Below, piece by piece: positions 2,587 to 42,156 of a stretch of 61,985 bases of DNA (positions are counted from its first letter, which is position 1; each line of letters opens with the position of its first letter). The position numbers and the translations under genes were made by a program. This DNA comes from a virus. Lineage: Duplodnaviria > Caudoviricetes. Below the pieces are notes generated by a model, which was not told the DNA's origin, made no database searches, and saw nothing but the letters and a program-made list of their open reading frames with translations. The DNA lies in IMG/VR virus record IMGVR_UViG_3300037483_001239, positions 1-61,985 of that record, one strand, 5' to 3'.

Positions 2587-5064
2587 ATGGCGATAGGCCT
2601 TGGGACGATCAGCGGGACCATCGAACTCGAGGACAAGTTCTCAAAGGCTCTCGAGGACTTGACGAGGAGTACCCTCTCGTCGATGGGGAGTCTGGGCTCG
2701 GCGATTACCGGCGTCGCCGCGTCCTTCGTCTTGGCGGAGAAGGGAATCTCCTTCTTTGTCAATGCGGTGAGTGGGGCGGTCGCGGAAGTCGTTCAGCTCG
2801 CCGCGAAGGCGGAACAGCTACAGAATAAGTCCCTGACGACCGGGATGACGACAGGCGCGATTCAGAGCCTCCAGCGCTTGTCGGAGAACGCCGGGTTGTC
2901 CGCGGACGCGGTGACGTTCTCGGTTTCGAGAATGCAGAGGAGCCTCGCTGCGGGAGGAGACAACTTCCGGAAGGCCGGGCTCGACGCACAGGCGTTGCTC
3001 AAGCTGGGGACGTCTGACCAGCTGAAGGCGGTTGCCGATCGGATCATGGCGATCGAGAATCCCGCGCAGCGGACCGCCGCCGCGATGGAGATCTTCGGGA
3101 GGGGTGGACAACAGCTGCTCCCTGTTCTCAAGCAGTTGGCGGAGGGGAACGAGGCTCTGAAGATCAGTCTTTCCGATGCACAGATCGAGGCCTTGGGAAA
3201 CCTCGACGACGCGATCGATGACATGACCGGGTCGTGGACGGACATGAAAGAGCAGTTCTTCGCGGTGCTCGGATCGTCGCCGGAGTTCGTGGGGGCACTG
3301 AAGAGTATTACCGCCGGCCTCCAGGACATGATGGTTTTCACCGGGCTCGTTGCCTCCGGCATTGCGATGATCTCGAGGGAGGTGGACCGGCTGTTGAGCA
3401 AGCCTCGAGACGTCATGGAGGTTTGGTTCGGCGCAGAGCTGGACATGCCTGACATCGGAAAGGCGACGAAGAAGAGCGTTGGGAAGTTCGGAGCAGCGGG
3501 AGGGGGCCCTGCCCTCGGTCTTCCGACTGCGGAGGAAGCCCTGGGGATGATGAACGTCGCCGATCTGAAGAAGGGGATCGGCTCGATCGAGGAACAGGCG
3601 AAGGCTCTAGACAAGCTGATTGACAAACAGGAGAAGGCCGCGAAGGCTGCTGCAGCTCATGGGAAAGAGATGCGGACTCTGACCTTCGCGATTGACGGGC
3701 AGGCGTTCTCCTTGGCCCAAGCAACGACTTCCCTCGACAAGCATCTCGCGACGTGGATCGATTTCAAGCCCGTGGACCTGACCAAGGATCTCCTCGACCT
3801 GAACAAGGCGCTGGGACAGGGCCCTGAGATGGGAGCGGATATTCTCGGAGGGGTGATTTCCCGTGGGAAGAGGGGTGCGGAGCAGGCTCTTGACGATCTC
3901 CAGTTGGGGTCGCGCCTGACAAAGTCCCTCGGCGAGGGTATGAAGGACCTGCCCAATGTCATGCTCGCGGCGATCCAGGGAGGTGGGGACGTCTTCAAGG
4001 CGATGGGTGCGAGCATCGGTGGAGACATCGGGAGCGAGCTCGGAAAGGATCTAGCGAAGTCTATCGGCGGGAAGCTGGGCTCCGCCCTCGGATCGCTTGC
4101 CGGACCCCTCGGGTCTCTCGCGGGGAGTCTCGCCGGAGGCTTGATCGACAAGCTCGGGATCGGTGGGAACAAGGTCATCATGCAGGTCAATGACATGCGT
4201 GATTCCTTCTTCGAGGCGAGAGGAGGGTTCATCGAGCTCCAGAAGCAGCTGCAAGGGTTGACAAACCAAGACCTGGTCAAGCAGATCTTCGACGCGAAGA
4301 CGGTTGACGAGTTCAATGCCTCGATCAAGGAGGTGAATGACCTTCTCGATGCGCAGGCTCAGAGCCAGCAAGCGCTGCAGGCGGCGATCGAGGAGTACGG
4401 GATCTCGGTCGAAGAGCTCGGGCCGAAGTTCGCACAGCAGCAGATGGACGAGAGGGCGCAGAAGCTGTTCCAGGATTTCCAGCTTCTTATGGCCGCGACA
4501 GACGACGTGAACCTGGTCATCTCGAAGATGGGTCCGTCGTTGAACGAGTTCGTGAGTTCCTCGATCGCAGCAGGGACGACGATTCCCGAGGCGATGCGCC
4601 CGATCGTCGAGGAACTGATCAAGAGCGGACAGCTCTTGGACGAGAACGGGGAAGCGTACAAGTCGACGGAGGAGGCGGGGATCACCTTCGCGCAGTCGAT
4701 GTCCGAGCAGTTCACGACGCTCATCGACAAGCTGGATACGTGGATCTCCATGCTGCTGGGGATTCCAAAGGATATCCAGACGAATGTTACGGTCAACACG
4801 AAGAGGACCGGGGACAGTGAAGAGCTTCCTGGGCCTCCCGGAGATCGGGACAACGATCCGGTAACGCCTTTTGCCACAGGCGGGATTGTCACTCAACCGA
4901 CGTTGGGACTTGTTGCTGAGGCCGGTGCAGAGGCGATCATCCCGTTGGACAAGGCCTCGGCGATGCTGGGCTCGGGTGAATCTCGAATCAACGCGGGGGA
5001 CCTGAAGATGCTCGTCAAGCAGATGACGAAGGCGCTTCGTGATGCGATGATCCAGGCACAGTGA
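2587..5064 (+). CDS. Tape measure protein
   Basis: 825 aa Ala/Gly-rich helical; C-terminal FATGGIVTQPTLGLVAEAGAEAIIPL. Confidence 0.9.
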   Translation: MAIGLGTISGTIELEDKFSKALEDLTRSTLSSMGSLGSAITGVAASFVLAEKGISFFVNAVSGAVAEVVQLAAKAEQLQNKSLTTGMTTGAIQSLQRLSENAGLSADAVTFSVSRMQRSLAAGGDNFRKAGLDAQALLKLGTSDQLKAVADRIMAIENPAQRTAAAMEIFGRGGQQLLPVLKQLAEGNEALKISLSDAQIEALGNLDDAIDDMTGSWTDMKEQFFAVLGSSPEFVGALKSITAGLQDMMVFTGLVASGIAMISREVDRLLSKPRDVMEVWFGAELDMPDIGKATKKSVGKFGAAGGGPALGLPTAEEALGMMNVADLKKGIGSIEEQAKALDKLIDKQEKAAKAAAAHGKEMRTLTFAIDGQAFSLAQATTSLDKHLATWIDFKPVDLTKDLLDLNKALGQGPEMGADILGGVISRGKRGAEQALDDLQLGSRLTKSLGEGMKDLPNVMLAAIQGGGDVFKAMGASIGGDIGSELGKDLAKSIGGKLGSALGSLAGPLGSLAGSLAGGLIDKLGIGGNKVIMQVNDMRDSFFEARGGFIELQKQLQGLTNQDLVKQIFDAKTVDEFNASIKEVNDLLDAQAQSQQALQAAIEEYGISVEELGPKFAQQQMDERAQKLFQDFQLLMAATDDVNLVISKMGPSLNEFVSSSIAAGTTIPEAMRPIVEELIKSGQLLDENGEAYKSTEEAGITFAQSMSEQFTTLIDKLDTWISMLLGIPKDIQTNVTVNTKRTGDSEELPGPPGDRDNDPVTPFATGGIVTQPTLGLVAEAGAEAIIPLDKASAMLGSGESRINAGDLKMLVKQMTKALRDAMIQAQ

Positions 5065-7169
5065 TGGCACACGACCCTGTGTTCCCGGAGGAGGTCCGGA
5101 TCGACGCGTTCATGCGGAAGCTTATTCATTGGACGGACCCTGTCAACGTGGACATTGATACGGGGCCGTTCACCTCCGGGGACATCGTCGCGACGGGCAC
5201 TCCGGGGTCGGCACGGTCCATCGCGACGGCTGTCGACGGTGACAGATGCTACGTGGAGTTCGTAGCTGGGGCTCCCGCCGCGAGCACTGGTCGAGAGATG
5301 GGGTTGACCGATGACTTCGATGGTCTGTACACGAGTATCGACTTCGGCATCCACATTGCTCCTACCGGGGGTTGGAACGTCATCGAAGACGGGACGACAA
5401 TGCTTGCGGGGCCGGTGGAAGTAGTCGCGGGAGACGTCTTCCGGGTCGAAGCGGCGAACGGGGTCGTCAAGTACTATCGGAATTCGGTCCTCCGGTACAC
5501 GTCCACGGTGGCCCCGACCTACCCCCTGTTCGCAGCGGCAGCCCTCCTAGGGAATGACGCACGATTCGAAGGGGTGATATTCGCGCAGTGGCTGGAGATC
5601 CCTGATGTCCAGTTGACTCCCGCCATCTCGATTTCGAGGGGGAATGACGGGACCAGTCAGAAGGATCGAGTCGCGGAGACCGGGACAATGTCCTTCGCTC
5701 TGGACAATTCCGAAGACAACTCTGCCGGGCTGCTCGGACTCTACTCCTCCCCGAACAACGTGAATGTTCTGGAGGGGTGGGAGGTCGGGATCGATGTCAG
5801 GTGTATTGTTGCCTACGCTGGCGTCGACGAGCCCGTCTTCTATGGAACGATCGAGGATATTGTTCCAGGCTCCGGGAAGTTCCGCGAGCGGAAGGTCAGT
5901 GTGTCGTGTGTGGACTGGATGGATGAAGCCGCAACCGCGAAGGTTCGAGGGTTGCAAGTCCAGCTGAACAAGCGCTCGGACGAGGTCTTTACGGTCCTGA
6001 TCAACAGTGTTCCGCGACAGCCTGGCGGCGGATACATCGCGCAGATCGGGGGAGATATCTACCCGTACGCCCTTGACAATGCGTTCGAGGGGGAAGTCAA
6101 CGTGATGTCGGAGTTCCAGAGACTGGTCCAGTCGGAGCTCGGACGGGTGTATGTCCGCCGGGATGGAGTCGCCGTCTTTGAATCCCGGCACAAGCGCCCG
6201 AATCTCTTCACCCTGTCCCTGACAATGACCGACGAAGACATCGATGAGTTGGATACTGGGCGGGGGCGATCCGACATTATCAACCATGCTGAGGTCCAGG
6301 CACATCCCCGACGCGTCGATGCGGCGGCGACGTCCGTTCTCTTCACGCTTGCGTCGAAGCCGAGGATCGAGAGGAATACTCCTCTGACGTTGAACGTTCT
6401 TTTTCGAGACCCGGATGCTCGAGCGACGAGGGTCGGAGGGACGAATCTTGTCCAGCCTGTGGCCACAACCGATTACATGTTCAACACGCTGGAGAGTGGA
6501 GCGGGAACGGACGTCACCTCGCAGTTGACGGTTGTCGGAACCTTCAGCGCGAATGGTGGAGAGGTAGTCGTCACGAATAATGGACCTTCTGACGGGTACC
6601 TCACCAAGCTCCAGTGCCGTGGAAGGGGGATCTACGACTACGAAACGATCCTCGCGAAGGCGGACAGCGCCGCGTCGAAGGAGAAGTACGGGGAACGCTC
6701 CTTTCCGTTGGACATGCCGTATCAGAATGATTTGAACGTGGCGAAGGACGCGGCGGAGTTCGTGGTTCAACAGTCGAAGGCTCTCCTCACGCAGGTGAAG
6801 GGAGTCTCGTTCTTCGCGAACCGGGAAGACCGCCTGCTGCTCGCTGCTCTACAGTTGGATGTCAGCGCGAAGATCCATCTCGACGAGACGGTAGTCGGGA
6901 ACGAGCCGTTCACTCCTGTCGGGGAGGATGTTCAAGAGGTCACGGTGGTCGAGTTTTTCATCAACTCTGTCCAGATGGAGATCGGAGAACGGGGAGTGAT
7001 CAAGTGTCAGTGGGCGTTGGAGCCCGCCGACCCGTTCAACTACTGGATTCTTGAACGGGATGGATTCACCGAGCTTGGGCAGACGACTCGTCTGGCCTAT
7101 GGCTCCTTCATCGCAGGGTGGGTGCTGAACGATAGCGTGCTCGGCACCGGAACGAGGGTGAACCAGTAA
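5061..7169 (+). CDS. Tail tip / baseplate hub-like protein
   Basis: 702 aa beta-rich directly after TMP; hub-like segments (ISISRG, ELGRVYVRRDGVAVFESR, IINHAEV). Confidence 0.7.
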   Translation: MMAHDPVFPEEVRIDAFMRKLIHWTDPVNVDIDTGPFTSGDIVATGTPGSARSIATAVDGDRCYVEFVAGAPAASTGREMGLTDDFDGLYTSIDFGIHIAPTGGWNVIEDGTTMLAGPVEVVAGDVFRVEAANGVVKYYRNSVLRYTSTVAPTYPLFAAAALLGNDARFEGVIFAQWLEIPDVQLTPAISISRGNDGTSQKDRVAETGTMSFALDNSEDNSAGLLGLYSSPNNVNVLEGWEVGIDVRCIVAYAGVDEPVFYGTIEDIVPGSGKFRERKVSVSCVDWMDEAATAKVRGLQVQLNKRSDEVFTVLINSVPRQPGGGYIAQIGGDIYPYALDNAFEGEVNVMSEFQRLVQSELGRVYVRRDGVAVFESRHKRPNLFTLSLTMTDEDIDELDTGRGRSDIINHAEVQAHPRRVDAAATSVLFTLASKPRIERNTPLTLNVLFRDPDARATRVGGTNLVQPVATTDYMFNTLESGAGTDVTSQLTVVGTFSANGGEVVVTNNGPSDGYLTKLQCRGRGIYDYETILAKADSAASKEKYGERSFPLDMPYQNDLNVAKDAAEFVVQQSKALLTQVKGVSFFANREDRLLLAALQLDVSAKIHLDETVVGNEPFTPVGEDVQEVTVVEFFINSVQMEIGERGVIKCQWALEPADPFNYWILERDGFTELGQTTRLAYGSFIAGWVLNDSVLGTGTRVNQ

Positions 7170-7459
7170 TGGCTTGGACGATTCCACGGACGTGGCTCGC
7201 CGGGGAGATGGTCAAGGAGGGGGACCTCAACGCTCAGATCCGGGACAACATGCTCTTGTTGGCGACTCCGATTGATACTGCGACGGGGAAGATCTCCGCG
7301 TTGTCCGGGACGACCCTCGCGAATCTGAGTGGAGCGAATCTGACGGGCGTCGCGAAGACCGCGGCTGCAAACTCGTACACGGCGGGGGTCAACAACTTCA
7401 ATGCAGGGGCGACGACCAGGCTCGTGTTCCCGGTTGGCGCGGACAAGTGGGGGGTGTAA
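7169..7459 (+). CDS. Small tail protein, MAWTxPxTW paralog 1
   Basis: MAWTIPRTWLAGE..LNAQIRDN; aligns over its length with the N-terminus of the next gene (PVGADKW). Confidence 0.7.
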   Translation: MAWTIPRTWLAGEMVKEGDLNAQIRDNMLLLATPIDTATGKISALSGTTLANLSGANLTGVAKTAAANSYTAGVNNFNAGATTRLVFPVGADKWGV

Positions 7460-7462
7460 CCC

Positions 7463-8347
7463 ATGGCCTGGACCGCTCCTAGGACGTGGGTCGACGGGGA
7501 GGTCCCGACTGCTGCGTTGATGAATCTCCATGTCCGGGACAACGAGCTCGTTCTCAAGACGCCGTTGGGGAGTGACGGACGGATCGTGGCTTTGGACTCG
7601 ACGAGAGTCGCGAGTCTCTCCGGAACGAATCTGACCGGGCTCGTTTTCCTAACGGGGGCTTCCCACACGGTTGGGGTTCAGAGGTTCCTCGACCCGGCCC
7701 GTGTGATTCTTCCCGTCGGAGCGGACAAGTGGACGGGGACTAAGGGGGTGAATGCCGCTGGGGTCTGGATCGAGGGGGACTATCTACATCACATCGCGCA
7801 GGATGTGACGACGGAGTGGAGGTTCTTGGGCGTGCCCGTCGGAACGCCTGCAGGAGCGACAGTCGGGTCCTTCTGGGTGGAGGATGCGTTTCCTCATTAC
7901 ATCGACGCGAGTGGAGTGGAGAGGTACATCATCTCGAATCTTACTCAGCACTCGGATGCCGCGGCGGTGGGAGGGTCCGGCTGGGTCGAGTCGTACGTGC
8001 ATTGGATCCGACAGAGCGGAACGCTGGAGTATGTTGGGCATTACGATGTGCTCCACGCGGACGGTACCACGCACTCCGACCATTCCGATCACTCGGATAG
8101 TGGGGCGCATGACGACTCGTCCGTGCACACGGATACGGGATCACCCCACGATGACAATCCCGGGTTCCATGTCGATCATACGGATGGACCCGGACACGCG
8201 GATATTGATCCGGTTCACACGGATCATACCGATCATACGGACCACGACGATCACTCGGACTCCGGTCCGCACAGTGACTCGAACCCGCACGATGATCATA
8301 CCGACCATGGGGATGTCACCGCCGATTCTCGCCCGGTGGTCGTATGA
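7463..8347 (+). CDS. Tail-fibre-like protein (MAWTxPxTW paralog 2) with C-terminal His-x-Asp repeat region
   Basis: Shared N-terminus; 20 HxD triplets encoded at 8039-8314. Confidence 0.75.
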   Translation: MAWTAPRTWVDGEVPTAALMNLHVRDNELVLKTPLGSDGRIVALDSTRVASLSGTNLTGLVFLTGASHTVGVQRFLDPARVILPVGADKWTGTKGVNAAGVWIEGDYLHHIAQDVTTEWRFLGVPVGTPAGATVGSFWVEDAFPHYIDASGVERYIISNLTQHSDAAAVGGSGWVESYVHWIRQSGTLEYVGHYDVLHADGTTHSDHSDHSDSGAHDDSSVHTDTGSPHDDNPGFHVDHTDGPGHADIDPVHTDHTDHTDHDDHSDSGPHSDSNPHDDHTDHGDVTADSRPVVV

Positions 8348-9672
8348 CGGTCGAGGTGAACCCGGTTGGCCGGAGATGCGGAGCGAAGAACGGGGCATTG
8401 TCGTGTACGTATTGTTACCTTCCTCTCGATGCCCGACTCAACGAGCCGCTCCCGGTGGTTGATCACCTTGCGGTGCAAAAGGTGGTGGCCGGGCTAGTGC
8501 CTAAGGACGGGAGCTTTTCCCTCTTCGGGGGTGAACCCCTCCTCGCTGCGAACGAGGACCTTGAACGGCTTTGGTCCTTCGGGTTGGAGACATACGGGAA
8601 GAATGGCGTGCAGACGGGCGGGAGACCGATCACCGAGAAGCATTTCGAGATGTTCCACAAGTACAAGGTTGCGGTGGGGTTCTCGATTGACGGGCCGGAG
8701 GAGTTGGGAGATGCCCGGTGGGCGGGCTCGACGGAGGAAACGAGAAGGTCAACCGCGTATTCGATCTCGTGTTTGGAACGGTGTTTGAAGGAGGGGATTC
8801 CGGCGGGTCTGATCCTGACCCTTCACAGGAAGAATGCGTCGGCGTCGAAACTTCCGAGGCTCCTCGACTGGCTGCGAGGGCTTGACGGTCAAGGACTGAG
8901 TTCGACCGGCCTTCACCTTCTCGAGCATGATGGTCCTACGCGTTGGCTCGCCTTGAGTGATGAGGAGAACATCGCGGCGGTGCTCGCGTTGTACGAGCTT
9001 CAGAGGAAGAGCAAGACTCTGTCCTTCGATACGATCACCGATATGATCGCGCTTCTGCGGGGACTCGACTCCTGGAAGTGGAAGGACGGGACAGACGCTG
9101 GGGTCAAATGCGTGTGGACCGCGTGCGATCCGATGACAACGCCAGCCGTTCAAGGGGTGGACGCCTCCGGGAATCGGTCTCTTTGTCAGCGCGTGCACAA
9201 GGATGGGATTCCGTGGGGCCCGGCTCAGCCCGGACCTCTTATCCGGCAGCTGACTCTCGCGACGACCCCGCAGGAGAACGGTGGGTGTAAGGGATGCCGG
9301 TTCCTGATCACGTGTAAGGGGCAGTGTCCGGGGACCGCGATCGGTGGGGACTGGAGGAAGAGGAGTCGGGACTGTCGGGTCTGGTACTCGCTCTTCGAGC
9401 ATTTCGAACAGAGGATGCTCGCCGCGAAGGAGATCCCGATCACGATGTGGCCGGACGTGAAACGCGTGGAGGATGTGCTGATGGCCGGATGGGCGGTTGG
9501 CCGGACGATGTCTCTTGTCGATGCAATAGGGTACGTTCTACGAGGGACGGCCGTCTCCCAGACCCGGGTAGGGCACATCGATCATGAAGACCATACCGAT
9601 CACACGGACACGACGAAGGTCTTGACCGGAGGAGAACCGGTCATGGACGGACCAAAGGAGGGTGTGCTGTGA
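8344..9672 (+). CDS. Radical SAM/SPASM-domain protein (peptide-maturase type)
   Basis: C-x8-C-x2-C (CGAKNGALSCTYC), FGGEP, GFSIDG, SPASM-like CKGCRFLITCKGQCPG..C; own C-terminal HIDHEDHTDHTD. Confidence 0.85.
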   Translation: MTVEVNPVGRRCGAKNGALSCTYCYLPLDARLNEPLPVVDHLAVQKVVAGLVPKDGSFSLFGGEPLLAANEDLERLWSFGLETYGKNGVQTGGRPITEKHFEMFHKYKVAVGFSIDGPEELGDARWAGSTEETRRSTAYSISCLERCLKEGIPAGLILTLHRKNASASKLPRLLDWLRGLDGQGLSSTGLHLLEHDGPTRWLALSDEENIAAVLALYELQRKSKTLSFDTITDMIALLRGLDSWKWKDGTDAGVKCVWTACDPMTTPAVQGVDASGNRSLCQRVHKDGIPWGPAQPGPLIRQLTLATTPQENGGCKGCRFLITCKGQCPGTAIGGDWRKRSRDCRVWYSLFEHFEQRMLAAKEIPITMWPDVKRVEDVLMAGWAVGRTMSLVDAIGYVLRGTAVSQTRVGHIDHEDHTDHTDTTKVLTGGEPVMDGPKEGVL

Positions 9673-11168
9673 GTGAGTTCTTCCGAGGAGTACAGTGGGC
9701 GTCGACAGAGGCGAAGGCCATTTGGGAGCTGAGGATTCAAGCCGCGGCGAGTGCATGGAACCAGCTCGAGTCGTTGTCGGTGACGGCGGGGATCCGAGAC
9801 TCCGCACTCTTCTCGATGACCACGAAAGAGCTGGTTGCAGCAGCGCGAGCGGTCGGAGAGCACGGGCTGGAGATCACCGTCGTGGATGAAACCCTGCTCA
9901 GCGGAACGTATCAGTCCGCGACTCCCGAAGTCGGGTCTCCGGGTCTCCGCGTCGCGGTACACCGTCGGGGGCTCGGTCACTTCTGGCATGACGCCTGGAT
10001 ACGGGGAGACAACGACCGTATCGGACAGATGTTGGGGTTCCCCAAGTGCTGTCGGGGGTTCTTCGACCGGGTTTGGACGGGGGACCGTCTCCGAGATACA
10101 ACCTCCTCGATGGGAGGGCCGATCGTCGGGGGCTTGGGAAATATCCTCCTCCGTTGGATCGGGGTCCGCCTCGTTCCTCATCTCCCGTGTTCGTTCTCCT
10201 GTCCGGAGACTCTCCGTCTCGCAGAACGTTTCCTCGAACTGGGAAAGGCCTCCGGCCTCGCCCCGGAGATGGCCGCGATGGAACAGCTCCTCGCACTGCC
10301 CATGACCTACTCCGCGCTGCACGGAATCGGGCTCGTCGAGACCCCGTTCTTCCGTTTCGGCTTCTCCACGGACTGGACTCCTGACGAGCAGAGGATTGTC
10401 ATCGCTGAAGGGTTCGAACCGAGGCCATTTGCCACTGAGGAGGTGGTGCCCGAGCCCCTTCCTCAGCACCCGTGGGAGGACAACGGCTTCGCCCTGAACA
10501 GCGCGATGGGCGAGGCCCATACCGTTGTCACGAGAGCGTTTCAGGGGAAGCCCGCTGATCTCGCGATCGACCTGGGGTGTGGAGACGGCACCCTCCTGAA
10601 CACGTTGAGGATGGCCGGGCTGATCCGGAACGGAATCGGGATCGACTCGGACGCAGGGAGGATCGAGCGCGGACGCGGGAGGTACCCGGATCTGTCACTG
10701 TTCCCGTTGTCGATTCAGGACTGGGCGCGAAAAGGGGAAGAGGCGATCGGAGACGTCGTCGTCCTCTTCATGCCGGGACGACTCGAAGAGATGGCGACGG
10801 AAGACGCGGAGAGGGTCCTCGAACGTCTTCGCAGGATGCCACGGGTGATCTTGTACTGCTACCAGAAGCCGGTGCTCGGTGCCCGAGCGAAGCTGATCGG
10901 GGCGAAGACCCTCTTCGCGTTCGAGAAGGCTGGGTTCGAGGCGGCGCCGGTTGACCGATGGGAGGATCCCCCTCCCTGTGAGACGAAGACGTGTCAGGGG
11001 ACGGCGTGCGGGACTCCCGCATATCTTCCCCACCATCACGATTCAGTTGGGGAACCTCCGCACGGCACAGTAGGGGCGGTCTGTCCGAACTGTGGGAAGA
11101 ACCCGAATCCTACGGGAGCCATCTGCCTCGAGTGCCTTAGTCCGGAGGAGGAGGAGCCCCATGCATGA
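9669..11168 (+). CDS. DUF483-like domain + class I SAM methyltransferase + Cys-rich tail
   Basis: LGFPKCC and HLPCSFSC motifs; IDLGCGDG..GIDSD motif I/II; terminal CxxC pairs. Confidence 0.65.
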   Translation: MSEFFRGVQWASTEAKAIWELRIQAAASAWNQLESLSVTAGIRDSALFSMTTKELVAAARAVGEHGLEITVVDETLLSGTYQSATPEVGSPGLRVAVHRRGLGHFWHDAWIRGDNDRIGQMLGFPKCCRGFFDRVWTGDRLRDTTSSMGGPIVGGLGNILLRWIGVRLVPHLPCSFSCPETLRLAERFLELGKASGLAPEMAAMEQLLALPMTYSALHGIGLVETPFFRFGFSTDWTPDEQRIVIAEGFEPRPFATEEVVPEPLPQHPWEDNGFALNSAMGEAHTVVTRAFQGKPADLAIDLGCGDGTLLNTLRMAGLIRNGIGIDSDAGRIERGRGRYPDLSLFPLSIQDWARKGEEAIGDVVVLFMPGRLEEMATEDAERVLERLRRMPRVILYCYQKPVLGARAKLIGAKTLFAFEKAGFEAAPVDRWEDPPPCETKTCQGTACGTPAYLPHHHDSVGEPPHGTVGAVCPNCGKNPNPTGAICLECLSPEEEEPHA

Positions 11169-11550
11169 GGCGGAAACGCCGTGGCGGATCGAACACCTCG
11201 GCCACTTTGCCTGGTTCCAGAGGTCGTTTCTTGCCGGGGACTTCGCTCCTGGGAAGATCCCTCTCGGGAACTATGTGATTGTCAACGGCCGGGCGATGGA
11301 CCCGGGAGAAACCCCGGTCTGCGGGACGTGTGGAGAAGTCCCCCGAGTCGAAGACCTCGAGCCTGTCGACCACGCGACGGAGGACCGTGGATTCTTGGAT
11401 CGTTTCCGGCGGGGCCTCGTCCCGTGGAAGCGGGCAGGTCGGACGGATCCATCCACCTGTTGGTGGTGCAACTTCCCTGGTCCTCTCGTCGTGGATCAGG
11501 GCCCGGTCAAGCTCTGCGCGGGATGCGCGGCGCATCTGAAGGAGTATTGA
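11161..11550 (+). CDS. Hypothetical Zn-binding protein
   Basis: GAGGAG RBS; CGTC, CWWC, CAGC. Confidence 0.6.
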   Translation: MHEAETPWRIEHLGHFAWFQRSFLAGDFAPGKIPLGNYVIVNGRAMDPGETPVCGTCGEVPRVEDLEPVDHATEDRGFLDRFRRGLVPWKRAGRTDPSTCWWCNFPGPLVVDQGPVKLCAGCAAHLKEY

Positions 11551-11552
11551 TC

Positions 11553-12134
11553 ATGGCCTGGACGATTCCAAAGACGTGGACGGCGGGCGAGACCGTCACG
11601 TCGTCGATGATGAACACGCACATCCGGGACAATCTGAACGTCCTCAAGACCAACATCGCCGACGACGGGACTATCATCGCTCCACGGACGCTGAGTTCTC
11701 AGAGTGGGGCGGTTAACAACGTCGGAGCAGGTGAGACGACGTTGTTTACGTATACCGTCCCCGCGGGGCAGTTGTCCGCGAACGGGCAGAGGCTCAAGCT
11801 GATTGCGACGGGTGTCCACGCCGCAACAGCGAATACGAAGCTTTTCAAGCTCTACTTCGGTGCTGCAGTCGTCGCCATGCTCGCGAACGCGTTCAACTCG
11901 GCCGCCGGCAACTGGTGGTTCGAGGCCGTGGTCACGCGGGTCGGGGCGACCTCACAGACGATGTGGAGCGCGTTCAAGGAGTGGCAGACCGCCTCCGCGA
12001 ACGTGGCGAGCTACGATCCACGAGTCAACGGAACGGAGACGTTGTCGGGTACGGTCGTCGCGAAGATCACAGGGCAGTCGGCCAGCGACGGGCATTTGAC
12101 GGGTACGGAGTTCGCGGTGGAGTTCTGGCCGTGA
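11553..12134 (+). CDS. Tail fibre/receptor-binding-like protein (MAWTxPxTW paralog 3)
   Basis: MAWTIPKTWTAGE..MNTHIRDN; beta-rich C-terminal domain. Confidence 0.7.
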   Translation: MAWTIPKTWTAGETVTSSMMNTHIRDNLNVLKTNIADDGTIIAPRTLSSQSGAVNNVGAGETTLFTYTVPAGQLSANGQRLKLIATGVHAATANTKLFKLYFGAAVVAMLANAFNSAAGNWWFEAVVTRVGATSQTMWSAFKEWQTASANVASYDPRVNGTETLSGTVVAKITGQSASDGHLTGTEFAVEFWP

Positions 12135-12478
12135 TCATCGCTCTGACAACGAACCAAGGGTTCGAGAGCTTCCAGCTCTGGTGGCATGCCCTGATCTTCG
12201 GCGGGAGGGGAACCGACATCGAGAACGCGCTGATGAAAAAGCTGTCCCGGCTCAGCCGGCCCGGTCCTGATCGACAATCTCGCGTTCTCCTCCGTCCGTG
12301 TGAGGTTGTCCTCTCCGACGTGGAACGGGCGACTCTCCTCGGGTGCTTTGCCCGGACCACCTGGCAGCAGGATCGATTCCAGGATGTGGAGAGGGCGGTA
12401 GCTCTCTTCGGGGGGAGAGTCGAGAGGAAGGCTACCGCCGGACGAGCTGATCCGGGTGGTATTGTAGCGGGAAGGTAG
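12131..12478 (+). CDS. Hypothetical protein
   Basis: GTGA overlap with the previous gene; last + strand gene of the tail module. Confidence 0.5.
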   Translation: MIIALTTNQGFESFQLWWHALIFGGRGTDIENALMKKLSRLSRPGPDRQSRVLLRPCEVVLSDVERATLLGCFARTTWQQDRFQDVERAVALFGGRVERKATAGRADPGGIVAGR

Positions 12479-12800
12479 CGACTCCACCATCGAGACGATG
12501 AACCATGCGGGTGGGATACCCGCAGTGAGAGCACTCTCCTTCTCCGTGGACCAGCCCCCATCAGAACGTCGATCCTAGGAGGAAGCCGATCATCCCTGCT
12601 AGGAAGAGGGTGCTCCCACATCCGACGCAGAGGATCCCGTTTCCGTCCTTACTCACCCGGGGCGGCAGGAACTTCTCGAGGTAGGCGGAAGGCGCTCCTT
12701 TGACATCCTCTGGCGTGCACGGAGGAAAGGGCAGGTCCTTGAGCGTGGCGACGTTCACGTTAGGGTCGGCGTCAGAGCCGTAGGCATCTTCGAGGTTCAT
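12432..12800 (-). pseudogene. Zn-finger protein interrupted by an in-frame TGA (12561-12563)
   Basis: CVGC..GSTF*WGLVHGEGECSHC..; frame stays open to TAG at 12432. Confidence 0.6.
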
Positions 12801-13147
12801 CCTCGTCCCTCCGACACCTTCGGGGCCTTTGTCTCCCCGAGAATGAACTCCACGTCGATGACGCTCCCGCTGGTCAGCTCCGACCAGTGTTCGGCGACGT
12901 ATCGGTGAGCCCATCGCATGGTGCGGGCGGCTGCGCTCCAGTCGTAGGGGTCGTACTGACACCCCCCAGCTCCACCTTCTAGTCGACCGAAGAGGACCAG
13001 CGGCTGGTCGAAGCCGTAGCCCGCACGGCGGAGTAGGAACGCCTCCGCGTCGAAGGTCTCGGCACCGCTGCGGAGCGGCGTCATCAGGATCCCGAAGCAC
13101 GGGATGAACGTGGCACGGTCGCGGACTTCGAACAGTTTGGTCTCCAT
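12797..13147 (-). CDS. Hypothetical protein
   Basis: Strong GGAGGAGG RBS; ATGA overlap downstream. Confidence 0.7.
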   Translation of the reverse strand: METKLFEVRDRATFIPCFGILMTPLRSGAETFDAEAFLLRRAGYGFDQPLVLFGRLEGGAGGCQYDPYDWSAAARTMRWAHRYVAEHWSELTSGSVIDVEFILGETKAPKVSEGRG

Positions 13148-13159
13148 GAGTCCTCCTCC

Positions 13160-13360
13160 TCAATTGAACATGATCAGTGTCGGGCCCCTCTTATACGCGA
13201 TGCAGACGGGCGCTGACCGGGTACGTCGAACAACGAGATTGATGATCGGATCGCCGTTGACCCCCTGATGGATCGAGACGTGTGCTTGCGGGGATTCCAG
13301 GCACGCAACAACCTGAACAGGGCGCACTGCTTTCGGCCGGTTCATGTTCACCCGGAGCAT
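13160..13360 (-). CDS. Hypothetical protein
   Basis: RBS and operon packing. Confidence 0.45.
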   Translation of the reverse strand: MLRVNMNRPKAVRPVQVVACLESPQAHVSIHQGVNGDPIINLVVRRTRSAPVCIAYKRGPTLIMFN

Positions 13361-13361
13361 G

Positions 13362-13523
13362 TCAGTTCTCCTTCCCCTTCCATGCAGCCGTGACGAGCAC
13401 GGCGCCAACGGCCGCGATGAGCGCGGTCGGTTCGGCGTTGTTAATGTAGTTGTTGTCCATGTACGTGTAGACGCCGACGAACATGAGCATCCCAACGCCG
13501 ACTGCCAGTACCAGCTTCCGCAT
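13362..13523 (-). CDS. Small two-TM membrane protein
   Basis: MRKLVLAVGVGMLMFVGVY..ALIAAVGAVLVTAAWK; AGGAGG RBS. Confidence 0.55.
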   Translation of the reverse strand: MRKLVLAVGVGMLMFVGVYTYMDNNYINNAEPTALIAAVGAVLVTAAWKGKEN

Positions 13524-13535
13524 TGTCAAACCCTC

Positions 13536-13874
13536 CTATCGAACGATGACCGGGGCAACCTGTCGGACGCGCCTTCCCGGGATATGAAGTACGCGGACGG
13601 TTCGGTCCCGCCTGCCCCATCGACGGGCTTCGCGGCATCCACCGACGAAGACGTCCACATGCCGCCCCTTGACCTTCCCTCCAACGTCATGGACCATCCT
13701 CTCACCGAGTCCCTCGATCTCGATGATCGAGCCGATGGGCAGGACGGTCGGATCTGCGGCCACCGTGAACTCGACGACCGGCTGCGTCCCGGACCTCGTG
13801 GGGTTCCCGTGAACCACGTCGCAGCCTACGGCATACGCGGTGACAATGAACATGGCCTCAGCTAATGGCATCAT
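13536..13874 (-). CDS. 3D-domain (MltA-like) cell-wall lytic protein
   Basis: VTAY..TRSG..VAADP..LPIGS..DVGGKVKGRHVDVF. Confidence 0.85.
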   Translation of the reverse strand: MMPLAEAMFIVTAYAVGCDVVHGNPTRSGTQPVVEFTVAADPTVLPIGSIIEIEGLGERMVHDVGGKVKGRHVDVFVGGCREARRWGRRDRTVRVLHIPGRRVRQVAPVIVR

Positions 13875-14104
13875 CTTCCTTTCGTGTATCGCCGAGCAAC
13901 GCCTCGCCAGTACTCGGCGGCTCGTGCGTAGCTCCACGAGAGAAGGGAGAGGTTGTTCGCCGCTGCGGCTTTGCAGAGGCTGCGGTAGTGATGGTGTAGC
14001 GCCGCCGCCTTCCCCGCGAAGTGGGTGTCTAGCTTGCTCGCGATGAACGCTGCGAAGCGAGGGTCGCCGAACCCTTCTGGAAGTGTCTGGCTAGGGTCGT
14101 CCAT
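13871..14104 (-). CDS. Hypothetical protein, probably leaderless
   Basis: ATG 6 nt after a consensus -10 box. Confidence 0.55.
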   Translation of the reverse strand: MDDPSQTLPEGFGDPRFAAFIASKLDTHFAGKAAALHHHYRSLCKAAAANNLSLLSWSYARAAEYWRGVARRYTKGR

Positions 14105-14110
14105 GGATCT

Positions 14111-14139
14111 ATTGTACAGTATTTGACCTAGCAGGTCAA
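14111..14139 (-). promoter_or_regulatory. Sigma70-type promoter with overlapping palindromic operator
   Basis: TTGACC-17-TACAAT; inverted repeat TTGACC-N5-GGTCAA at 14123-14139. Confidence 0.75.
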
Positions 14140-14173
14140 CGGCCGTCCTGTCTCCTGTAGGATGTCTTCCCAG

Positions 14174-14524
14174 CTACAGAGGGGTCCCGCCCCGTCGCCC
14201 AGCAAAGAAGTCCTCTGCCTGGTGGATCCGCTTGCGAATCTCGTAGTATGTCATTCCCAAGCGAGCGGCAGCGGCCTTCATCCCTTCCTGGCGGATGCGA
14301 GAGACCTGGTCTTCCGTGAAGTGAGGGTGGTTGCGCCGACGCCCACCTCGTTCGCGAAGCCGGACCTTGCACCGGGCGAGTGCGGTGCGAATCGCCTGTT
14401 TGCTGACGCCGAACTTCTGCGAGAGCTGGGGGAGGGAGAATTGTCGAGTGGTGTAGAGGTTCACCCACATCGCGGCTTCGGTGGGGAACTTAAGACGCTT
14501 CGCGACCTGGTCCCAGGCGATCAT
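14174..14524 (-). CDS. HTH DNA-binding protein
   Basis: FSLPQLSQKFGVSKQAIRTAL and AAAARLGMT HTH-like segments. Confidence 0.65.
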   Translation of the reverse strand: MIAWDQVAKRLKFPTEAAMWVNLYTTRQFSLPQLSQKFGVSKQAIRTALARCKVRLRERGGRRRNHPHFTEDQVSRIRQEGMKAAAARLGMTYYEIRKRIHQAEDFFAGRRGGTPL

Positions 14525-14538
14525 GACAATTCCCCTTC

Positions 14539-15273
14539 TTAGTACTGCCCTAGGTGCTGGCGCAGTGCCTGGATGTTGACCTGGATGAGGTGAGCACGGG
14601 CCTGGTCGATGGACTCGACGTTGAGGAGGTCGGCGGAAGAGACGGGCATGCCACGGAGCGAGAACCCGTCATCCATGATCCGGCCGAGAAGCCCGGCCTT
14701 GAACGGCTTTCCTGTGTCGATGGACAGGTTGAGCCGGGGGAACTGATCTGCGATCCATGCCCAGGCGTCGACCTCGTGGAAGGAGGACATCCCGAGAAGG
14801 TGGAAGCGGCGGCGACGCGTCCAGAGGTGTTGTTCGAAGAACCATTCCAGGCGAGAGCGCCGGAACGGAAGGCAGAGGAGGGAGGCAGTCGTCGTCTGTT
14901 CGAGGAAGTGTTCGCGTTCTTCGGGGGTGTCCCCAGCAAGGACGACTGCCGTGTTGAGGCCCAGATTGCGCTCGGCGAGGGCGTTGAACTGTTCTAGGGT
15001 CCAGGCTGGATCCTCCAGTTTGTCCGGGGCGATCACGTGCGTCGCGTTGACCCTTTCACACGCCTCGAGGAGGTCCAGGATCGGGAGGGAGACCCCTAGC
15101 TCGTGCATGGAGTTGTCGAGGATGAGTTCTCGATCCAACGAGCGGAGCCGGAAGAACTCAGCGTAGGCGCGATCCTCCAGGACCTTGTGTGCGAGGACGA
15201 AGTCCAGGTCGGTGAACGGTTGCCAGATTCTGAGGCTGGCCGCGGGGATCTCGAGCGCGAGTCGGATTGTCAT
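14539..15273 (-). CDS. TGT/DpdA-like TIM-barrel protein (candidate 7-deazaguanine insertion enzyme)
   Basis: LILDNS..E, VIAPD, FHLLG, SIDT motifs in TGT order; genome encodes folE/queD/queE/queC. Confidence 0.6.
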   Translation of the reverse strand: MTIRLALEIPAASLRIWQPFTDLDFVLAHKVLEDRAYAEFFRLRSLDRELILDNSMHELGVSLPILDLLEACERVNATHVIAPDKLEDPAWTLEQFNALAERNLGLNTAVVLAGDTPEEREHFLEQTTTASLLCLPFRRSRLEWFFEQHLWTRRRRFHLLGMSSFHEVDAWAWIADQFPRLNLSIDTGKPFKAGLLGRIMDDGFSLRGMPVSSADLLNVESIDQARAHLIQVNIQALRQHLGQY

Positions 15274-40144: not shown

Positions 40145-40633
40145 GTGCTGTCGCCTGAGTCGACGACGACCGTCCTCCCCTCGGAGAAGGGTGGGAGTCT
40201 CTCTCGAGCGCAACGGAACGAGGCCCGTCTCTTCGCGTTGACGATTCTCCGAGATCCGCTGTACCAGCAAGGGCTTCTCGCTGCGGCACGAAAGCGGGAG
40301 CTGGCTCCGGCCGTCGAGATCGCGATCATGCATTACGGATGGGGCAAGCCCCCGGACAAGGTCGAGGTCGGAGCTCCCGGTGCCTTCGATCTGGAGGATC
40401 TCCCGGCGGCTGCCCTTGCGGATCGTGCGGAGACGCTCGCGAGGACTCTCCGTCTCGTCCCTCGTCCTCCACAGGAGGAGGATCGGGCGGCGGCGTCCGC
40501 CCAGACTGACGAGGCTCTTGCCCGGACGAAGGAACGGGCGGATGCCCGGGCCGAAGCCGACGCCGAGGCCTCCCGTATTCGCAAGGTCATGAATCTCGTC
40601 ACACGAGAAGAGATCGGGGAGCTCGGAGCATGA
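40145..40633 (+). CDS. Terminase small subunit (putative)
   Basis: Directly upstream of TerL; HYGWGKPPDKVEV. Confidence 0.6.
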   Translation: MLSPESTTTVLPSEKGGSLSRAQRNEARLFALTILRDPLYQQGLLAAARKRELAPAVEIAIMHYGWGKPPDKVEVGAPGAFDLEDLPAAALADRAETLARTLRLVPRPPQEEDRAAASAQTDEALARTKERADARAEADAEASRIRKVMNLVTREEIGELGA

Positions 40634-42156
40634 GCACGGAGATGCTCTCTCCGGACCAGGAGGCCCTCGCCCTTGAGCTTGCTCAACGGGCTGAACTCAC
40701 CTGTGAGATCGGGCAACAGATCACGGTCGGTGCTGCCCGAGAAGAACTCCTCGCGATCGAACGGGAGCTCCGCAGGAGGGTCTGGGTGGGGGACCCTACC
40801 ACCTGGGCGGAGGAACGGCTCCGTGCGTACCTCTGGTCCATCCAGAAGAAGATCATGGAGTCCGTGCGTAAGCACCGGAAGACGGCGGTCCCCTCCTGCC
40901 ACGAAGCGGGGAAGTCCTACATCGCCGCAGGCATCGTCTCCTGGTGGCTTGATGTCCATCGTCCGGGCGAAGCCTTCGCGGTGACGTCTGCGCCTACCGG
41001 TCGCCAGGTCAAGGCCATCCTCTGGAGGGAGATCGGGCGAGCCCACGGCCTTGGACAGCTCCCCGGGCGTACGAACCAGACGGAATGGCTCATGGTCAAT
41101 CCGAGGACCGGCAAGGAGGAGCTCGTAGCCTTCGGGCAGAAGCCGGCCGACATGGACCCAGGCGCCTTCCAGGGGATCCACGCTCGACGCGTCCTCGTGG
41201 TCTTCGACGAGGCCTGCGGCATGCCCAAGGCTCTCTGGGATGCGGCGGACAGCCTCATCGCGAACGACGACTCCCGGTTCCTGGCCATCGGGAACCCCGA
41301 CGACCCTCACTCGGAGTTTGCAGAAGTCTGTAAGCCGGGCTCCTCCTGGAACACCATCCCGATCTCGGTCTTCGATACTCCGAACTTCACGGGTGAGGAC
41401 GTTCCCGAGGAACTCCGACACGTCCTCGTCGGCCGACTCTGGGTCGAGGAGAAGCGCAAGAAGTGGGGAGAGAAGTCTCCTCTCTACCAGGCGAAGGTTC
41501 TCGGGCGCTTCCCGGACCGCGTCGCGGACGGGCTCATCCCCTTCTCCGCGATCAAGGCGGCTCAAGCTCGAGAGCTCCGTCCGGATCAACCCGACGAGCT
41601 CGGAGTCGACGTCGGTGCCGGAGGCGACAAGAACGTTGTCTGTCGGAGGCGAGGTCCCGTCGCCCGGATCATCCGGGAGGATCAGGAACCGGACACCATG
41701 ATCTCCTGCGGGAACCTCCTGGCGGACCTCCGGAGTACCCGTGCGAGCATTGCAAAGGTCGATGCCATCGGCATAGGCCGAGGCCTCGTCGACCGTGCCC
41801 GTGAACAGAACCAGCCTGTCCGAGGAATCAACGTGTCCGTCTCTCCGACGGAGACAGCGGAAGCCTCTGCGGAGTTCGGGGGAGACGGCTTCGCCAACCT
41901 CCGAGCCCAGGCCTACTGGGAGCTCCGCGAACGCTTCCTCTCCGGTGCAATCGACATCGACGAGGAGGATGACGATCTCGCAAACCAACTCGCCTCGATG
42001 AAGTACAAGCGGACCTCCAAGGGGAAGATCCTCGTCGAGTCGAAAGACGACATGCGCCGGAGGGGGCTTGCCTCTCCTGACCGTGCTGATGCCCTTATGC
42101 TGGCCTTCCTCAATCCTCCGGAGGAGGAGGAAGAGTCAGGTGGAGTGCTCTGGTAA
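40630..42156 (+). CDS. terL: Terminase large subunit
   Basis: SCHEAGKS, VVFDEA, IGNP, LGVDVG, DAIGIG, SPDRADAL. Confidence 0.95.
   Translation: MSTEMLSPDQEALALELAQRAELTCEIGQQITVGAAREELLAIERELRRRVWVGDPTTWAEERLRAYLWSIQKKIMESVRKHRKTAVPSCHEAGKSYIAAGIVSWWLDVHRPGEAFAVTSAPTGRQVKAILWREIGRAHGLGQLPGRTNQTEWLMVNPRTGKEELVAFGQKPADMDPGAFQGIHARRVLVVFDEACGMPKALWDAADSLIANDDSRFLAIGNPDDPHSEFAEVCKPGSSWNTIPISVFDTPNFTGEDVPEELRHVLVGRLWVEEKRKKWGEKSPLYQAKVLGRFPDRVADGLIPFSAIKAAQARELRPDQPDELGVDVGAGGDKNVVCRRRGPVARIIREDQEPDTMISCGNLLADLRSTRASIAKVDAIGIGRGLVDRAREQNQPVRGINVSVSPTETAEASAEFGGDGFANLRAQAYWELRERFLSGAIDIDEEDDDLANQLASMKYKRTSKGKILVESKDDMRRRGLASPDRADALMLAFLNPPEEEEESGGVLW

Follow-up and report, generated by a model that had tools for sequence, protein, structure and literature searches.

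A phage tail-module cassette that pairs a His-x-Asp repeat protein with a radical SAM/SPASM enzyme: a candidate protein-maturation system

The virus record IMGVR_UViG_3300037483_001239 of IMG/VR (Caudoviricetes; estimated completeness 95%), analysed over its complete 61,985 bases and called the window below, carries at 7463-11550 a cassette in which a tail-module protein rich in His-x-Asp (HxD) triplets adjoins a radical S-adenosylmethionine (SAM) enzyme of the SPASM type and a DUF483-like protein fused to a methyltransferase-like region. With a probability of about 0.6, we infer that the cassette is a protein-maturation system resembling those of RiPPs (peptides made by the ribosome and modified afterwards), placed in the tail module of a phage and most likely installing three-residue crosslinks from His to Asp, possibly with methylation to follow. 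Judged from sequence, the tail protein is probably modified chemically after its synthesis. A first-pass annotation, made from the letters of the DNA, had described the HxD repeat, an N-terminus shared with neighbouring tail genes, an ATGA overlap with a radical SAM gene bearing a SPASM-like Cys cluster, a DUF483-like/methyltransferase fusion and a CxxC protein. Each of these descriptions held up in the searches reported here, and so did the proposed neighbourhood check, that radical SAM homologues should co-occur with HxD proteins. The parts of the cassette are as follows.

7463-7747, plus strand: module N1 of the HxD protein (residues 1-95), an N-terminal adaptor common to several tail proteins
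7748-8038, plus strand: module N2 of the HxD protein (residues 96-192), three repeats of G-x-x-W-[IV]-E-G-x-x-L-x-Y-[IL]-D-x-x-G
8039-8314, plus strand: His-x-Asp repeat region of the HxD protein (residues 193-284), with 20 H-x-D triplets spaced 3 to 7 apart; suggested target of the radical SAM enzyme
8344-9672, plus strand: radical SAM/SPASM enzyme of 442 residues, matching Pfam PF04055
9574-9609, plus strand: C-terminal HxD tail of the radical SAM enzyme (residues 411-422), HIDHEDHTDHTD
9669-10550, plus strand: DUF483-like domain, obligate partner of the radical SAM enzyme, detected with our own hidden Markov model (HMM)
10551-11168, plus strand: class I SAM methyltransferase-like region with a Cys-rich C-terminal end, fused to the DUF483-like domain; motif I is IDLGCGDG
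11161-11550, plus strand: 129-residue protein with CxxC pairs, its ATG at 11161 standing behind GAGGAG

The HxD protein, encoded on the plus strand at 7463-8347, has 294 residues. Twenty-one of its 27 histidines lie in H-x-D, and from residue 193 to the end (the last 102 residues) this is true of all 20 of 20. When the last 109 residues were shuffled with their composition preserved, none of 200,000 shuffles reached 20 HxD (mean 4.7, maximum 13), and chance was rejected as the origin of the repeat on this ground. Recent DNA slippage was rejected as well, since Tandem Repeats Finder detected no DNA repeat over 7400-8347. Because a repeat at the DNA level is lacking and the codons differ from one HxD unit to the next, the pattern is taken to be kept by selection on the protein. 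Among 87,466 residues of six-frame open reading frames (ORFs) in the window, the ORF at 7463-8347 is the only one with at least five HxD per 100 residues. The HxD tail is further kept in all 47 full-length relatives of the protein found in a large protein collection, in which 916 of 953 histidines belong to HxD.

The three-part anatomy of the protein was derived from local phmmer searches. The first ~30-60 residues of N1 also begin many phage proteins that otherwise differ, among them one with a weak match to a phage depolymerase domain (24.4 bits against a cut-off of 25). N2 forms the scaffold ahead of the repeat region in the phage forms, and the repeat region is followed by a conserved SRPVVV-like end. 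Searches of Pfam, NCBIfam and PHROG gave no family match for the protein, tail-fibre families included, and tblastn against isolated phages gave none either, probably due to the low-complexity filter.

An argument for a shared function comes from gene linkage. Scoring of 8,000 candidates gave 583 relatives of the radical SAM enzyme at E <= 0.001, and the best 120 of these all had E < 1e-98. With an alignment of 30 relatives as the query, 207 relatives were found in species-representative genomes, of which the best 80 were taken, and 84 on viral contigs, where 80 loci were taken and where a single radical SAM sequence had found none. Adding three loci from Thermus phages (phiLo, Cumys and phiMa) gave a sample of 163 loci, all fetched through the radical SAM enzyme. 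A six-frame ORF was called HxD-rich if it held at least 8 HxD per 100 residues, and linked if it lay on the strand of the radical SAM gene and within 4 kb of it. A linked HxD-rich ORF is present in 134 of the 163 loci, amounting to 160 such ORFs in 769,367 residues of six-frame ORFs, against 11 in the 1,547,080 residues from the rest of the same loci. The linked ORF usually ends at the start of the radical SAM gene or comes after the DUF483 gene. Most of the 11 outside ORFs look linked too: seven lie on the radical SAM strand 4.2-5.8 kb off or, as in phiLo, on the other strand 4.5-5.9 kb off, and three lie on the opposite strand at a distance of at most 350 bases. Module N2 was found by phmmer in 59 of the 163 loci (54 viral, 3 genomic and 2 from Thermus phages).

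A reverse sample was assembled from 78 viral loci fetched through the fibre N-terminus instead of the radical SAM enzyme. Thirteen of them have both an HxD gene and a radical SAM gene, 63 have neither, and two are contig-end cases (Fisher 9e-13). In the first of these two, which has HxD only, the contig is cut about 740 bases past the match; in the second, which has the radical SAM gene only, the HxD gene sits at the opposite end of the same contig. The 63 negative loci contain no HxD-rich ORF in 771,354 residues. Some of the 13 positives are contigs already present in the viral set fetched through the radical SAM enzyme; the negatives are the informative part of the comparison. This conserved linkage points strongly to the HxD region as the substrate of the enzymes. 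As a side observation, three viral loci (L162, L171 and L207) belong to one contig of 67,108 bases, in which the radical SAM gene is cut at the contig end and a locus at the contig start holds a radical SAM match together with the DUF483 gene, which suggests a complete genome in circular permutation.

The composition of the motif was studied in 158 distinct HxD-rich ORFs, the window's own included. In their repeat regions, 3,978 of 4,506 histidines stand in H-x-D. Thr, Ser, Gly, Ala and Val predominate in the middle position, where Pro is hardly ever seen; the motifs follow one another at spacings of 3 to 9 (commonest 5), and the regions end a median of 7 residues before the stop. Two positions before Asp, His makes up 86% of residues; Tyr (1.57x), Phe (0.81x) and Trp (0.85x) are found near background, Cys at 0.62x (5 cases only), and all others at 0.07-0.21x. 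Two positions after His, 88% of residues are Asp and 7.8% Asn (1.7x), and Glu (0.13x), His (0.05x) and Ser (0.02x) are avoided. By these preferences the motif is aromatic-x-Asp/Asn rather than a generic pair of metal ligands. A generic metal-ligand repeat was rejected as an account of the region, since such a repeat should accept both HxH and HxE.

The code is taken further in a related viral lineage. The contig at locus L104 has the N2 scaffold, the DUF483-methyltransferase protein and the radical SAM enzyme, but the repeat of its scaffold-bearing protein (2896-3942) consists of 37 F-x-N triplets, mostly in the form P-F-x-N-T, with few HxD. In locus L166 (3956-4555) the tail mixes HxD, FxD, FxN and YxD; the radical SAM enzyme there shares 70% identity with the one in L104. 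The substitution pattern and the F-x-N variant both fit a crosslink of an aromatic residue to the beta-carbon of the residue in position 3, one of about the size of Asp or Asn.

The candidate catalyst, the radical SAM enzyme, matches the Pfam Radical_SAM model (PF04055) over residues 19-161 at 29.8 bits (gathering cut-off 29.5, E 8.1e-07). Its cluster motif is C12-x8-C21-x2-C24 (CX8CX2C; C-G-A-K-N-G-A-L-S-C-T-Y-C) in place of the canonical CX3CX2C. Among the 120 best relatives, 41 have CX8CX2C, 72 have the canonical form and 7 start too late to tell. Because all three cysteines are invariant in the 30 aligned relatives and the shorter form is seen in 72 of 120, CX8CX2C looks like an insertion of five residues in the loop rather than a loss of the motif. 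Further cysteines are found at residues 256, 261, 281, 315, 318, 324, 328 and 344, those at 315-328 forming CX2CX5CX3C, and all 11 cysteines of the enzyme are invariant in the alignment. The C-terminal Cys pattern of the SPASM type is complete, and the CX2CX5CX3C stretch aligns to the motif of the anaerobic sulfatase maturase (anSME); we take the C-terminal cysteines to hold two auxiliary 4Fe-4S clusters. The SPASM model TIGR04085 itself is matched below its cut-off (19.9 bits against 27, E 7.7e-4, residues 309-339).

Relationships to named families are distant. The best NCBIfam matches are the cyclophane maturases AmcB (E 3.6e-16) and DynA (9.4e-14) and the anSME (2.1e-13), all far below their cut-offs. 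Scored in bits against the curated cut-off, the enzyme reaches 59.1 of 425 for AmcB, 35.7 of 445 for YhhB, 32.3 of 310 for GrrM/OscB, 27.1 of 370 for FxsB and 18.9 of 450 for XyeB; for the anaerobic sulfatase maturase model TIGR03942 it reaches 50.1 bits where 349 are required. Searching the PDB by profile placed anSME first (4k36, E 3.1e-17) and the triceptide synthase ChlB second (9gm3, E 3.8e-14). The nearest curated and solved relatives are thus cyclophane-forming peptide maturases and the protein-modifying anaerobic sulfatase maturase.

The enzyme also carries HxD motifs of its own. In its C-terminal tail, H417 and D419 are invariant and H420 and D422 nearly so among the 30 aligned relatives, and at least two HxD are found in the last 70 residues of 99 of the 120 relatives. 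An HxD partner gene accompanies 65 of 69 radical SAM enzymes with a tail and 44 of 62 without one (Fisher 4e-4), and 63 of 101 unfused enzymes have such a tail, against none of 17 radical SAM-DUF483 fusions (Fisher 5e-7); neither set of counts is phylogenetically independent. One idea casts DUF483 as the HxD-binding module, on which an unfused radical SAM enzyme would dock through its own HxD tail. Alternatively, the tail may be a pseudo-substrate or a self-substrate that is itself modified. Neither this tail nor the CX8CX2C motif had been remarked on in the first-pass annotation.

The next ORF, 9669-11168, begins with a GTGA overlap and codes for the DUF483-like protein. Against Pfam PF04467 (DUF483; gathering cut-off 25), the window's protein scores 14.2 bits, that of Cumys 16.1 and that of phiLo 20.4. 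Our own HMM matches the window's domain at E 3.8e-125 and detects the domain in 150 of the 163 loci. P125, C127, C128, D143, P173 and C178 are invariant in the alignment, and H171, C174 and H218 nearly so; this conservation suggests that they mark a metal or catalytic site. The structural model of the domain is confident (predicted local distance difference test score, pLDDT, 89.3), but nothing in the PDB (best 2guk, E 0.1, over 102 columns) or in BFVD (best E 0.021) matches it at E <= 0.001. In the ESM Atlas its nearest clusters are unnamed, with PF04467 on 13-28% of their members. Among the 143 loci with a strong DUF483 match, DUF483 is fused to the radical SAM enzyme in 17, and 83 of the DUF483 proteins have a methyltransferase motif-I match in a C-terminal extension. 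The window's methyltransferase-like region has the motif IDLGCGDG and matches Methyltransf_25 at 23 bits (cut-off 27, E 1.4e-4).

The cassette ends with the CxxC protein, which likely starts at the ATG at 11161 and not at the GTG at 11092. It has no family match in Pfam, NCBIfam or PHROG. Since relatives occur in 7 of the 163 loci only, it is, as far as conservation tells, an accessory outside the conserved core.

Phages already in culture carry related cassettes. In a collection of phage genomes, three records only have relatives of the radical SAM enzyme, with 45-46% identity: those of the Thermus phages phiLo, Cumys and phiMa. Directly upstream of the radical SAM gene, Cumys and phiMa encode a protein of 343 residues with 54 of 54 and 53 of 53 histidines in H-x-D, and a DUF483 protein is encoded downstream. 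In Cumys these genes are Cumys_13 for the HxD protein, Cumys_12 for the radical SAM enzyme and Cumys_11 for DUF483. In Cumys the N1-like part is a separate protein of 98 residues, and the HxD protein begins at N2. The DUF483 proteins of the Thermus phages have 313 residues and are without a methyltransferase domain, which argues that methylation is not essential to the system. In phiLo (locus L002), two HxD proteins, phiLo_137 and phiLo_136, have 72 of 78 and 47 of 48 histidines in HxD. Their genes (12807-15173, minus strand) lie 4.5-5.9 kb from the radical SAM gene on the other strand, and genes for IS605-type transposases stand directly upstream of the radical SAM gene.

Bacterial loci show other carriers of the motif. 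In metagenome-assembled genomes (MAGs) of Acidobacteriota, radical SAM-DUF483 fusions have as neighbours short peptides opening with MPHxD, of 70-97 codons from stop to stop; the loci with such short carriers include L059 (7761-7970), L060, L068, L069, L081 and L083. Elsewhere, for example in L006, L011, L034 and L051, the carriers are proteins with an apparent twin-arginine signal, judged by eye, followed by HxD repeats. Still others have HxD regions followed by coiled coils, or are proteins of 1,000 to more than 2,600 residues with an HxD end. A Pfam search of six large bacterial HxD proteins was uninformative, returning one Laminin_G_3 domain and one FAD_binding_4 stretch in a stop-to-stop ORF. 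The system is not phage-specific, and the phage form, N2 followed by HxD, is one of several carriers. The first-pass proposal of a phage-encoded, RiPP-like system acting on a tail protein is supported in part, by the linkage, the conserved tails, the class of the enzyme and the motif, and has to be widened as to who carries it. For metal-uptake receptor mimicry, a role also suggested there, the analysis turned up nothing that speaks for or against.

Two cases deserve mention for their hosts. One contig of a Vicinamibacteria MAG has two apparently identical copies of the cassette about 2 Mb apart (L004 and L005), with the same coordinates, E-values and HxD counts and with p96- and HxD-type genes that bear N1. 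Among the genomic loci fetched (the best 80 of 207), theirs is the radical SAM enzyme nearest to the window's, at 54% identity. This hints that the two copies are prophages and that Acidobacteriota are hosts of this phage lineage. In L023, a radical SAM enzyme, a DUF483 protein and an HxD/coiled-coil protein occur in a MAG labelled as a Nitrososphaeraceae archaeon; this may be a case either of the system reaching across domains or of a misbinned contig.

In the window, the cassette lies at the distal end of the tail module, among the following genes.

2587-5064, plus strand: tape measure protein, matching PHROG tape-measure families (best E 3.3e-13)
5061-7169, plus strand: 702-residue protein between the tape measure and fibre genes
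7169-7459, plus strand: 96-residue stand-alone fibre N-terminal module N1 (MAWTxPxTW...RDN...LPVGADKW)
11553-12134, plus strand: 193-residue tail protein with the N1 start MAWTIPKTW... and without HxD
40630-42156: large terminase
42156-43532: portal

The window also codes for a head-morphogenesis protein and a DNA polymerase. The cassette follows directly on the tape measure gene and the gene for the 702-residue protein, and in siphovirus-type genomes the region after the tape measure is the usual place of tip and fibre genes. The 702-residue protein has no match in Pfam, NCBIfam or PHROG; relatives of it occur in 19 of the 163 loci, 17 of them viral. The stand-alone N1 protein matches residues 1-90 of the HxD protein (phmmer E 2.5e-20), and the 193-residue protein, which has relatives in 18 of the 163 loci, matches the HxD protein at E 7.4e-11. 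Close relatives also have an equivalent of the 96-residue gene upstream of the HxD gene, and Cumys_14 ends in a similar way, with LPVGTDRW. From the HxD gene on, the ORF junctions are an ATGA overlap, a GTGA overlap and an overlap of 8 bases, by which the cassette genes at 7463-11550 look translationally coupled. A scan of 6900-12700 for promoters and terminators gave nothing exceeding the shuffled expectation.

The tail assignment draws on the position after the tape measure, the shared N-terminus and the annotation of baseplate and fibre genes upstream in Cumys. On gene order and the shared N-terminus, the HxD protein is predicted to be a tail-module protein. A short motif, LPVGxD/NxW, closes whatever precedes the N2-HxD part: a protein of 1,255 residues in L166 (169-3933), the 98-residue protein in Cumys (L001, 5658-5951) and, in the window, both the 96-residue paralogue (7169-7459) and the internal junction of the HxD protein. 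It may be the junction between shaft and tip.

Several known systems resemble parts of the cassette. The radical SAM triceptide synthases are established to form three-residue cyclophanes on aromatic-x-x motifs, and crosslinks from C2 of His to a beta-carbon are proven on HTK, HAA and HNR for the enzymes HtkB, HaaB and YhhB (PMC11499958). In both cases a radical SAM/SPASM enzyme acts, or in the window would act, on repeated triplets with an aromatic residue first, here His/Tyr/Phe/Trp-x-Asp/Asn. A neighbouring gene with repeated aromatic-x-x motifs is present as well, with 20 HxD in the window and a partner in 134 of 163 loci; ChlB is the second-best relative in the PDB, and the best NCBIfam match is a cyclophane maturase. 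The differences are considerable: the window's enzyme falls far below all the curated family cut-offs, is without an N-terminal recognition element or an obvious leader on its candidate substrate, carries its own HxD tail and, in its subgroup, has CX8CX2C. Further, the candidate substrate in the phage has 294 residues (elsewhere up to more than 1,000) and 20 to more than 80 motifs where triceptide systems have a short leader-bearing precursor, and the window system has an obligate DUF483-like partner, often fused to a methyltransferase. A literature search over titles and the starts of abstracts found no His-x-Asp cyclophane and no HxD repeat system. In function, the triceptide synthases come nearest among known systems; in sequence, the radical SAM family stands equally far from these and from the sulfatase maturase.

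The anaerobic sulfatase maturase is similar in that it is a radical SAM/SPASM enzyme that begins directly with the cluster motif, without a recognition element, and modifies a beta-carbon within a protein. It differs in sequence (50 bits against a cut-off of 349) and in its companions, which in the window are an HxD protein and a DUF483 protein; no sulfatase gene was noticed beside the window's radical SAM gene. In the His-Xaa-Ser system, the repeat protein HxsA has His at every third position and is paired with the radical SAM proteins HxsB and HxsC. The comparison with this system, drawn in the first-pass annotation, survives only by way of analogy: of the 23 NCBIfam families that the radical SAM enzyme matches at E <= 0.1, none bears the name Hxs, the third position of the window motif is Asp/Asn, with Ser at 0.02x, and the partner is DUF483. 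The tip of the long tail fibre of phage T4, formed by gp37, has His-x-His motifs that bind iron, with i, i+2 spacing at the distal end. The present regions differ in having HxH at 0.05x, an irregular spacing and a dedicated radical SAM enzyme linked to them. In the titles and abstract starts searched, no radical SAM enzyme was found to be tied to a phage tail protein or to an HxD repeat.

The cassette itself has been noticed before in cultured phages. Cumys and phiMa were described as having an 'rSAM module' of a radical SAM protein and two proteins of no assigned function, one with DUF483, and similar prophage loci were noted together with fusions of DUF483 to methyltransferase or radical SAM domains (Viruses 2024;16:1410, PMC11437467). 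The window has the same three-gene set, with a radical SAM enzyme 45-46% identical to theirs, and differs in that its DUF483 gene carries a methyltransferase and its HxD protein carries the N1 adaptor. The words 'histidine' and 'HxD' are absent from the main text of that paper, so the HxD repeat and its reading as a protein substrate are not in that main text; figure 3B or the supplements might show the repeat protein.

From these elements a mechanism can be proposed. The tail-module protein 7463-8347 would be made with an unstructured C-terminal region of 20 aromatic-x-Asp (here His-x-Asp) motifs. The radical SAM enzyme 8344-9672, together with the DUF483-like protein 9669-11168, would take a hydrogen from the beta-carbon of the Asp in position 3, which would then be joined to the imidazole of the His in position 1 to give a three-residue cyclophane, with a loss of 2 Da per motif. 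This step is modelled on the triceptide synthases and their action on aromatic-x-x motifs. The methyltransferase fused to DUF483 would probably add a second modification. The product would be a string of small rigid rings, probably at the distal end of the tail protein, whose imidazole nitrogens and carboxylates could still bind a metal or a receptor. The repeat, the linkage of the three genes, the class of the enzyme and the aromatic-x-Asp/Asn tolerance are observed; the identity of the substrate, the bond, the order of steps, the role of DUF483 and the effect on the fibre are points that we infer.

A number of observations weigh against this mechanism. The radical SAM enzyme scores far short of the cut-offs curated for all the cyclophane families, it has the unusual cluster motif CX8CX2C, and no PqqD-like recognition element was found in it with Pfam at E <= 0.1, the cluster motif beginning as early as residue 12. 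The AlphaFold model of the HxD protein is poor (mean pLDDT 44), with beta hairpins in N2 at pLDDT 55-71 and the repeat region predicted to be disordered at about 40. The placing of that protein in the tail is taken from gene order and the shared N-terminus. A strict HxD partner is missing from 29 of the 163 loci. Contig ends interrupt about 9 of them, and in 8 the HxD gene is weaker or on the opposite strand; among the dozen or so left are full-length loci, such as L008, L009, L014, L020, L031, L033 and L074, in which nothing was detectable. L104 and L105, both of the F-x-N lineage, are also among the 29. Further, the locus counts are not phylogenetically independent, and the data look alike for a C-C or C-N crosslink, hydroxylation, epimerisation or another radical reaction at the motif. 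A metal-binding role of the His and Asp residues may also coexist with their modification. Finally, the authors who described the Cumys module propose an as yet unspecified DNA modification, citing cyanobacterial loci near deazapurine genes (PMC11437467).

Some of these points feed directly into rival explanations. The HxD motifs could be modified by the radical SAM enzyme through a different chemistry, such as oxidation or hydroxylation of the Asp beta-carbon, comparable to the oxidation of Ser or Cys by the sulfatase maturase, epimerisation, a link through a His nitrogen to carbon or a crosslink between chains, with methylation perhaps as the main lasting mark. The enzyme is about as near to the sulfatase maturase as to the cyclophane synthases (2.1e-13 and 3.6e-16 in NCBIfam; 3.1e-17 and 3.8e-14 in the PDB), and shares with the former a layout in which the cluster motif comes first, without a recognition element; like it, the enzyme would act on a protein. 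DynA makes a link from a His nitrogen to a beta-carbon, and QhpD attacks the beta-carbon of Asp. The strict Asp/Asn in position 3 would suit any reaction at that carbon, and in 83 of 143 loci DUF483 carries a fused methyltransferase motif. However, the need for an aromatic residue exactly two positions before Asp/Asn, with His exchanged for Phe or Tyr, is hard to explain if Asp alone is modified, and methylation is not essential, as the 313-residue DUF483 proteins of the Thermus phages without a methyltransferase indicate. We consider this broader family of chemistries unlikely, while giving it real weight.

Less credit still is due to a fibre tip that holds divalent metal along a trimeric fibre without any covalent modification, the radical SAM and DUF483 proteins then serving fibre assembly, delivery of a metal or cluster, or modification of DNA. 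His and Asp two residues apart face the same side of a beta-strand and are a classic iron-binding pair, and in the titles and abstract starts searched HxD is in use as the iron-binding pair of dioxygenases. In favour of such a tip, some bacterial HxD proteins have an apparent twin-arginine signal, again by eye, a signal used for folded or cofactor-loaded cargo; several loci with radical SAM and DUF483 genes have no detectable HxD gene; and a DNA modification is what the Cumys paper suggests (PMC11437467). The motif itself argues the other way: HxH and HxE, both good metal binders, are depleted to 0.05x and 0.13x of background, His is swapped for Phe, Tyr and Trp and not for Asp, Glu or Asn (Cys at 0.62x stems from 5 cases only), the spacing is irregular, from 3 to 9, and the same scaffold and enzymes are also found with a repeat that is F-x-N throughout its design. 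A purely metal-binding tip would also leave unexplained the two-way linkage with a Cys-complete SPASM enzyme, and that enzyme resembles peptide- and protein-modifying enzymes, not those acting on nucleic acids. On balance this explanation appears distinctly improbable. That the repeat is low-complexity sequence without specific function, next to the radical SAM gene by coincidence, can practically be dismissed. The region is predicted to be disordered (pLDDT about 40) and matches no family, but the shuffles (0 of 200,000), the lack of a DNA repeat, the 47 of 47 conserved tails and the linkage in 134 of 163 loci and in the reverse sample all contradict such an origin.

A bolder form of the crosslinking mechanism may be considered, to which we would give somewhat short of even odds. 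About 20 covalent His-to-Asp rings per chain, and more than 50 in the Thermus phages, would turn the fibre tip into a rigid rod that resists heat and proteases, chelates metal and serves to recognise the host; the same pair of enzymes would mature small peptides and twin-arginine-like proteins in Acidobacteriota, Chloroflexota, Planctomycetota, Cyanobacteriota, Actinomycetota and at least one archaeon, all of which would form a large class of modified proteins that has so far gone undescribed, with aromatic-x-Asp/Asn as its code; and the tail of the radical SAM enzyme would dock on DUF483.

To our knowledge, the examples of radical SAM crosslinking to date are small secreted peptides and the cofactors of a few enzymes, and a modification of this sort has not been described for a protein of a virus particle. 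Tail proteins of phages are not known to contain carbon-carbon crosslinks put in by an enzyme, and the search of titles and abstract starts found none. Since Cumys and phiMa grow on Thermus thermophilus HB8, the proposal is directly testable. If the crosslinking reading holds, it would join two fields, in that radical SAM crosslinking would build a structural part of a virion. It would further give DUF483 its first functional context and offer enzyme engineering a natural scaffold with dozens of identical modification sites. For the family as a whole, a simple code, aromatic-x-Asp/Asn, would underlie a widespread system (207 genomic relatives and 84 on viral contigs).

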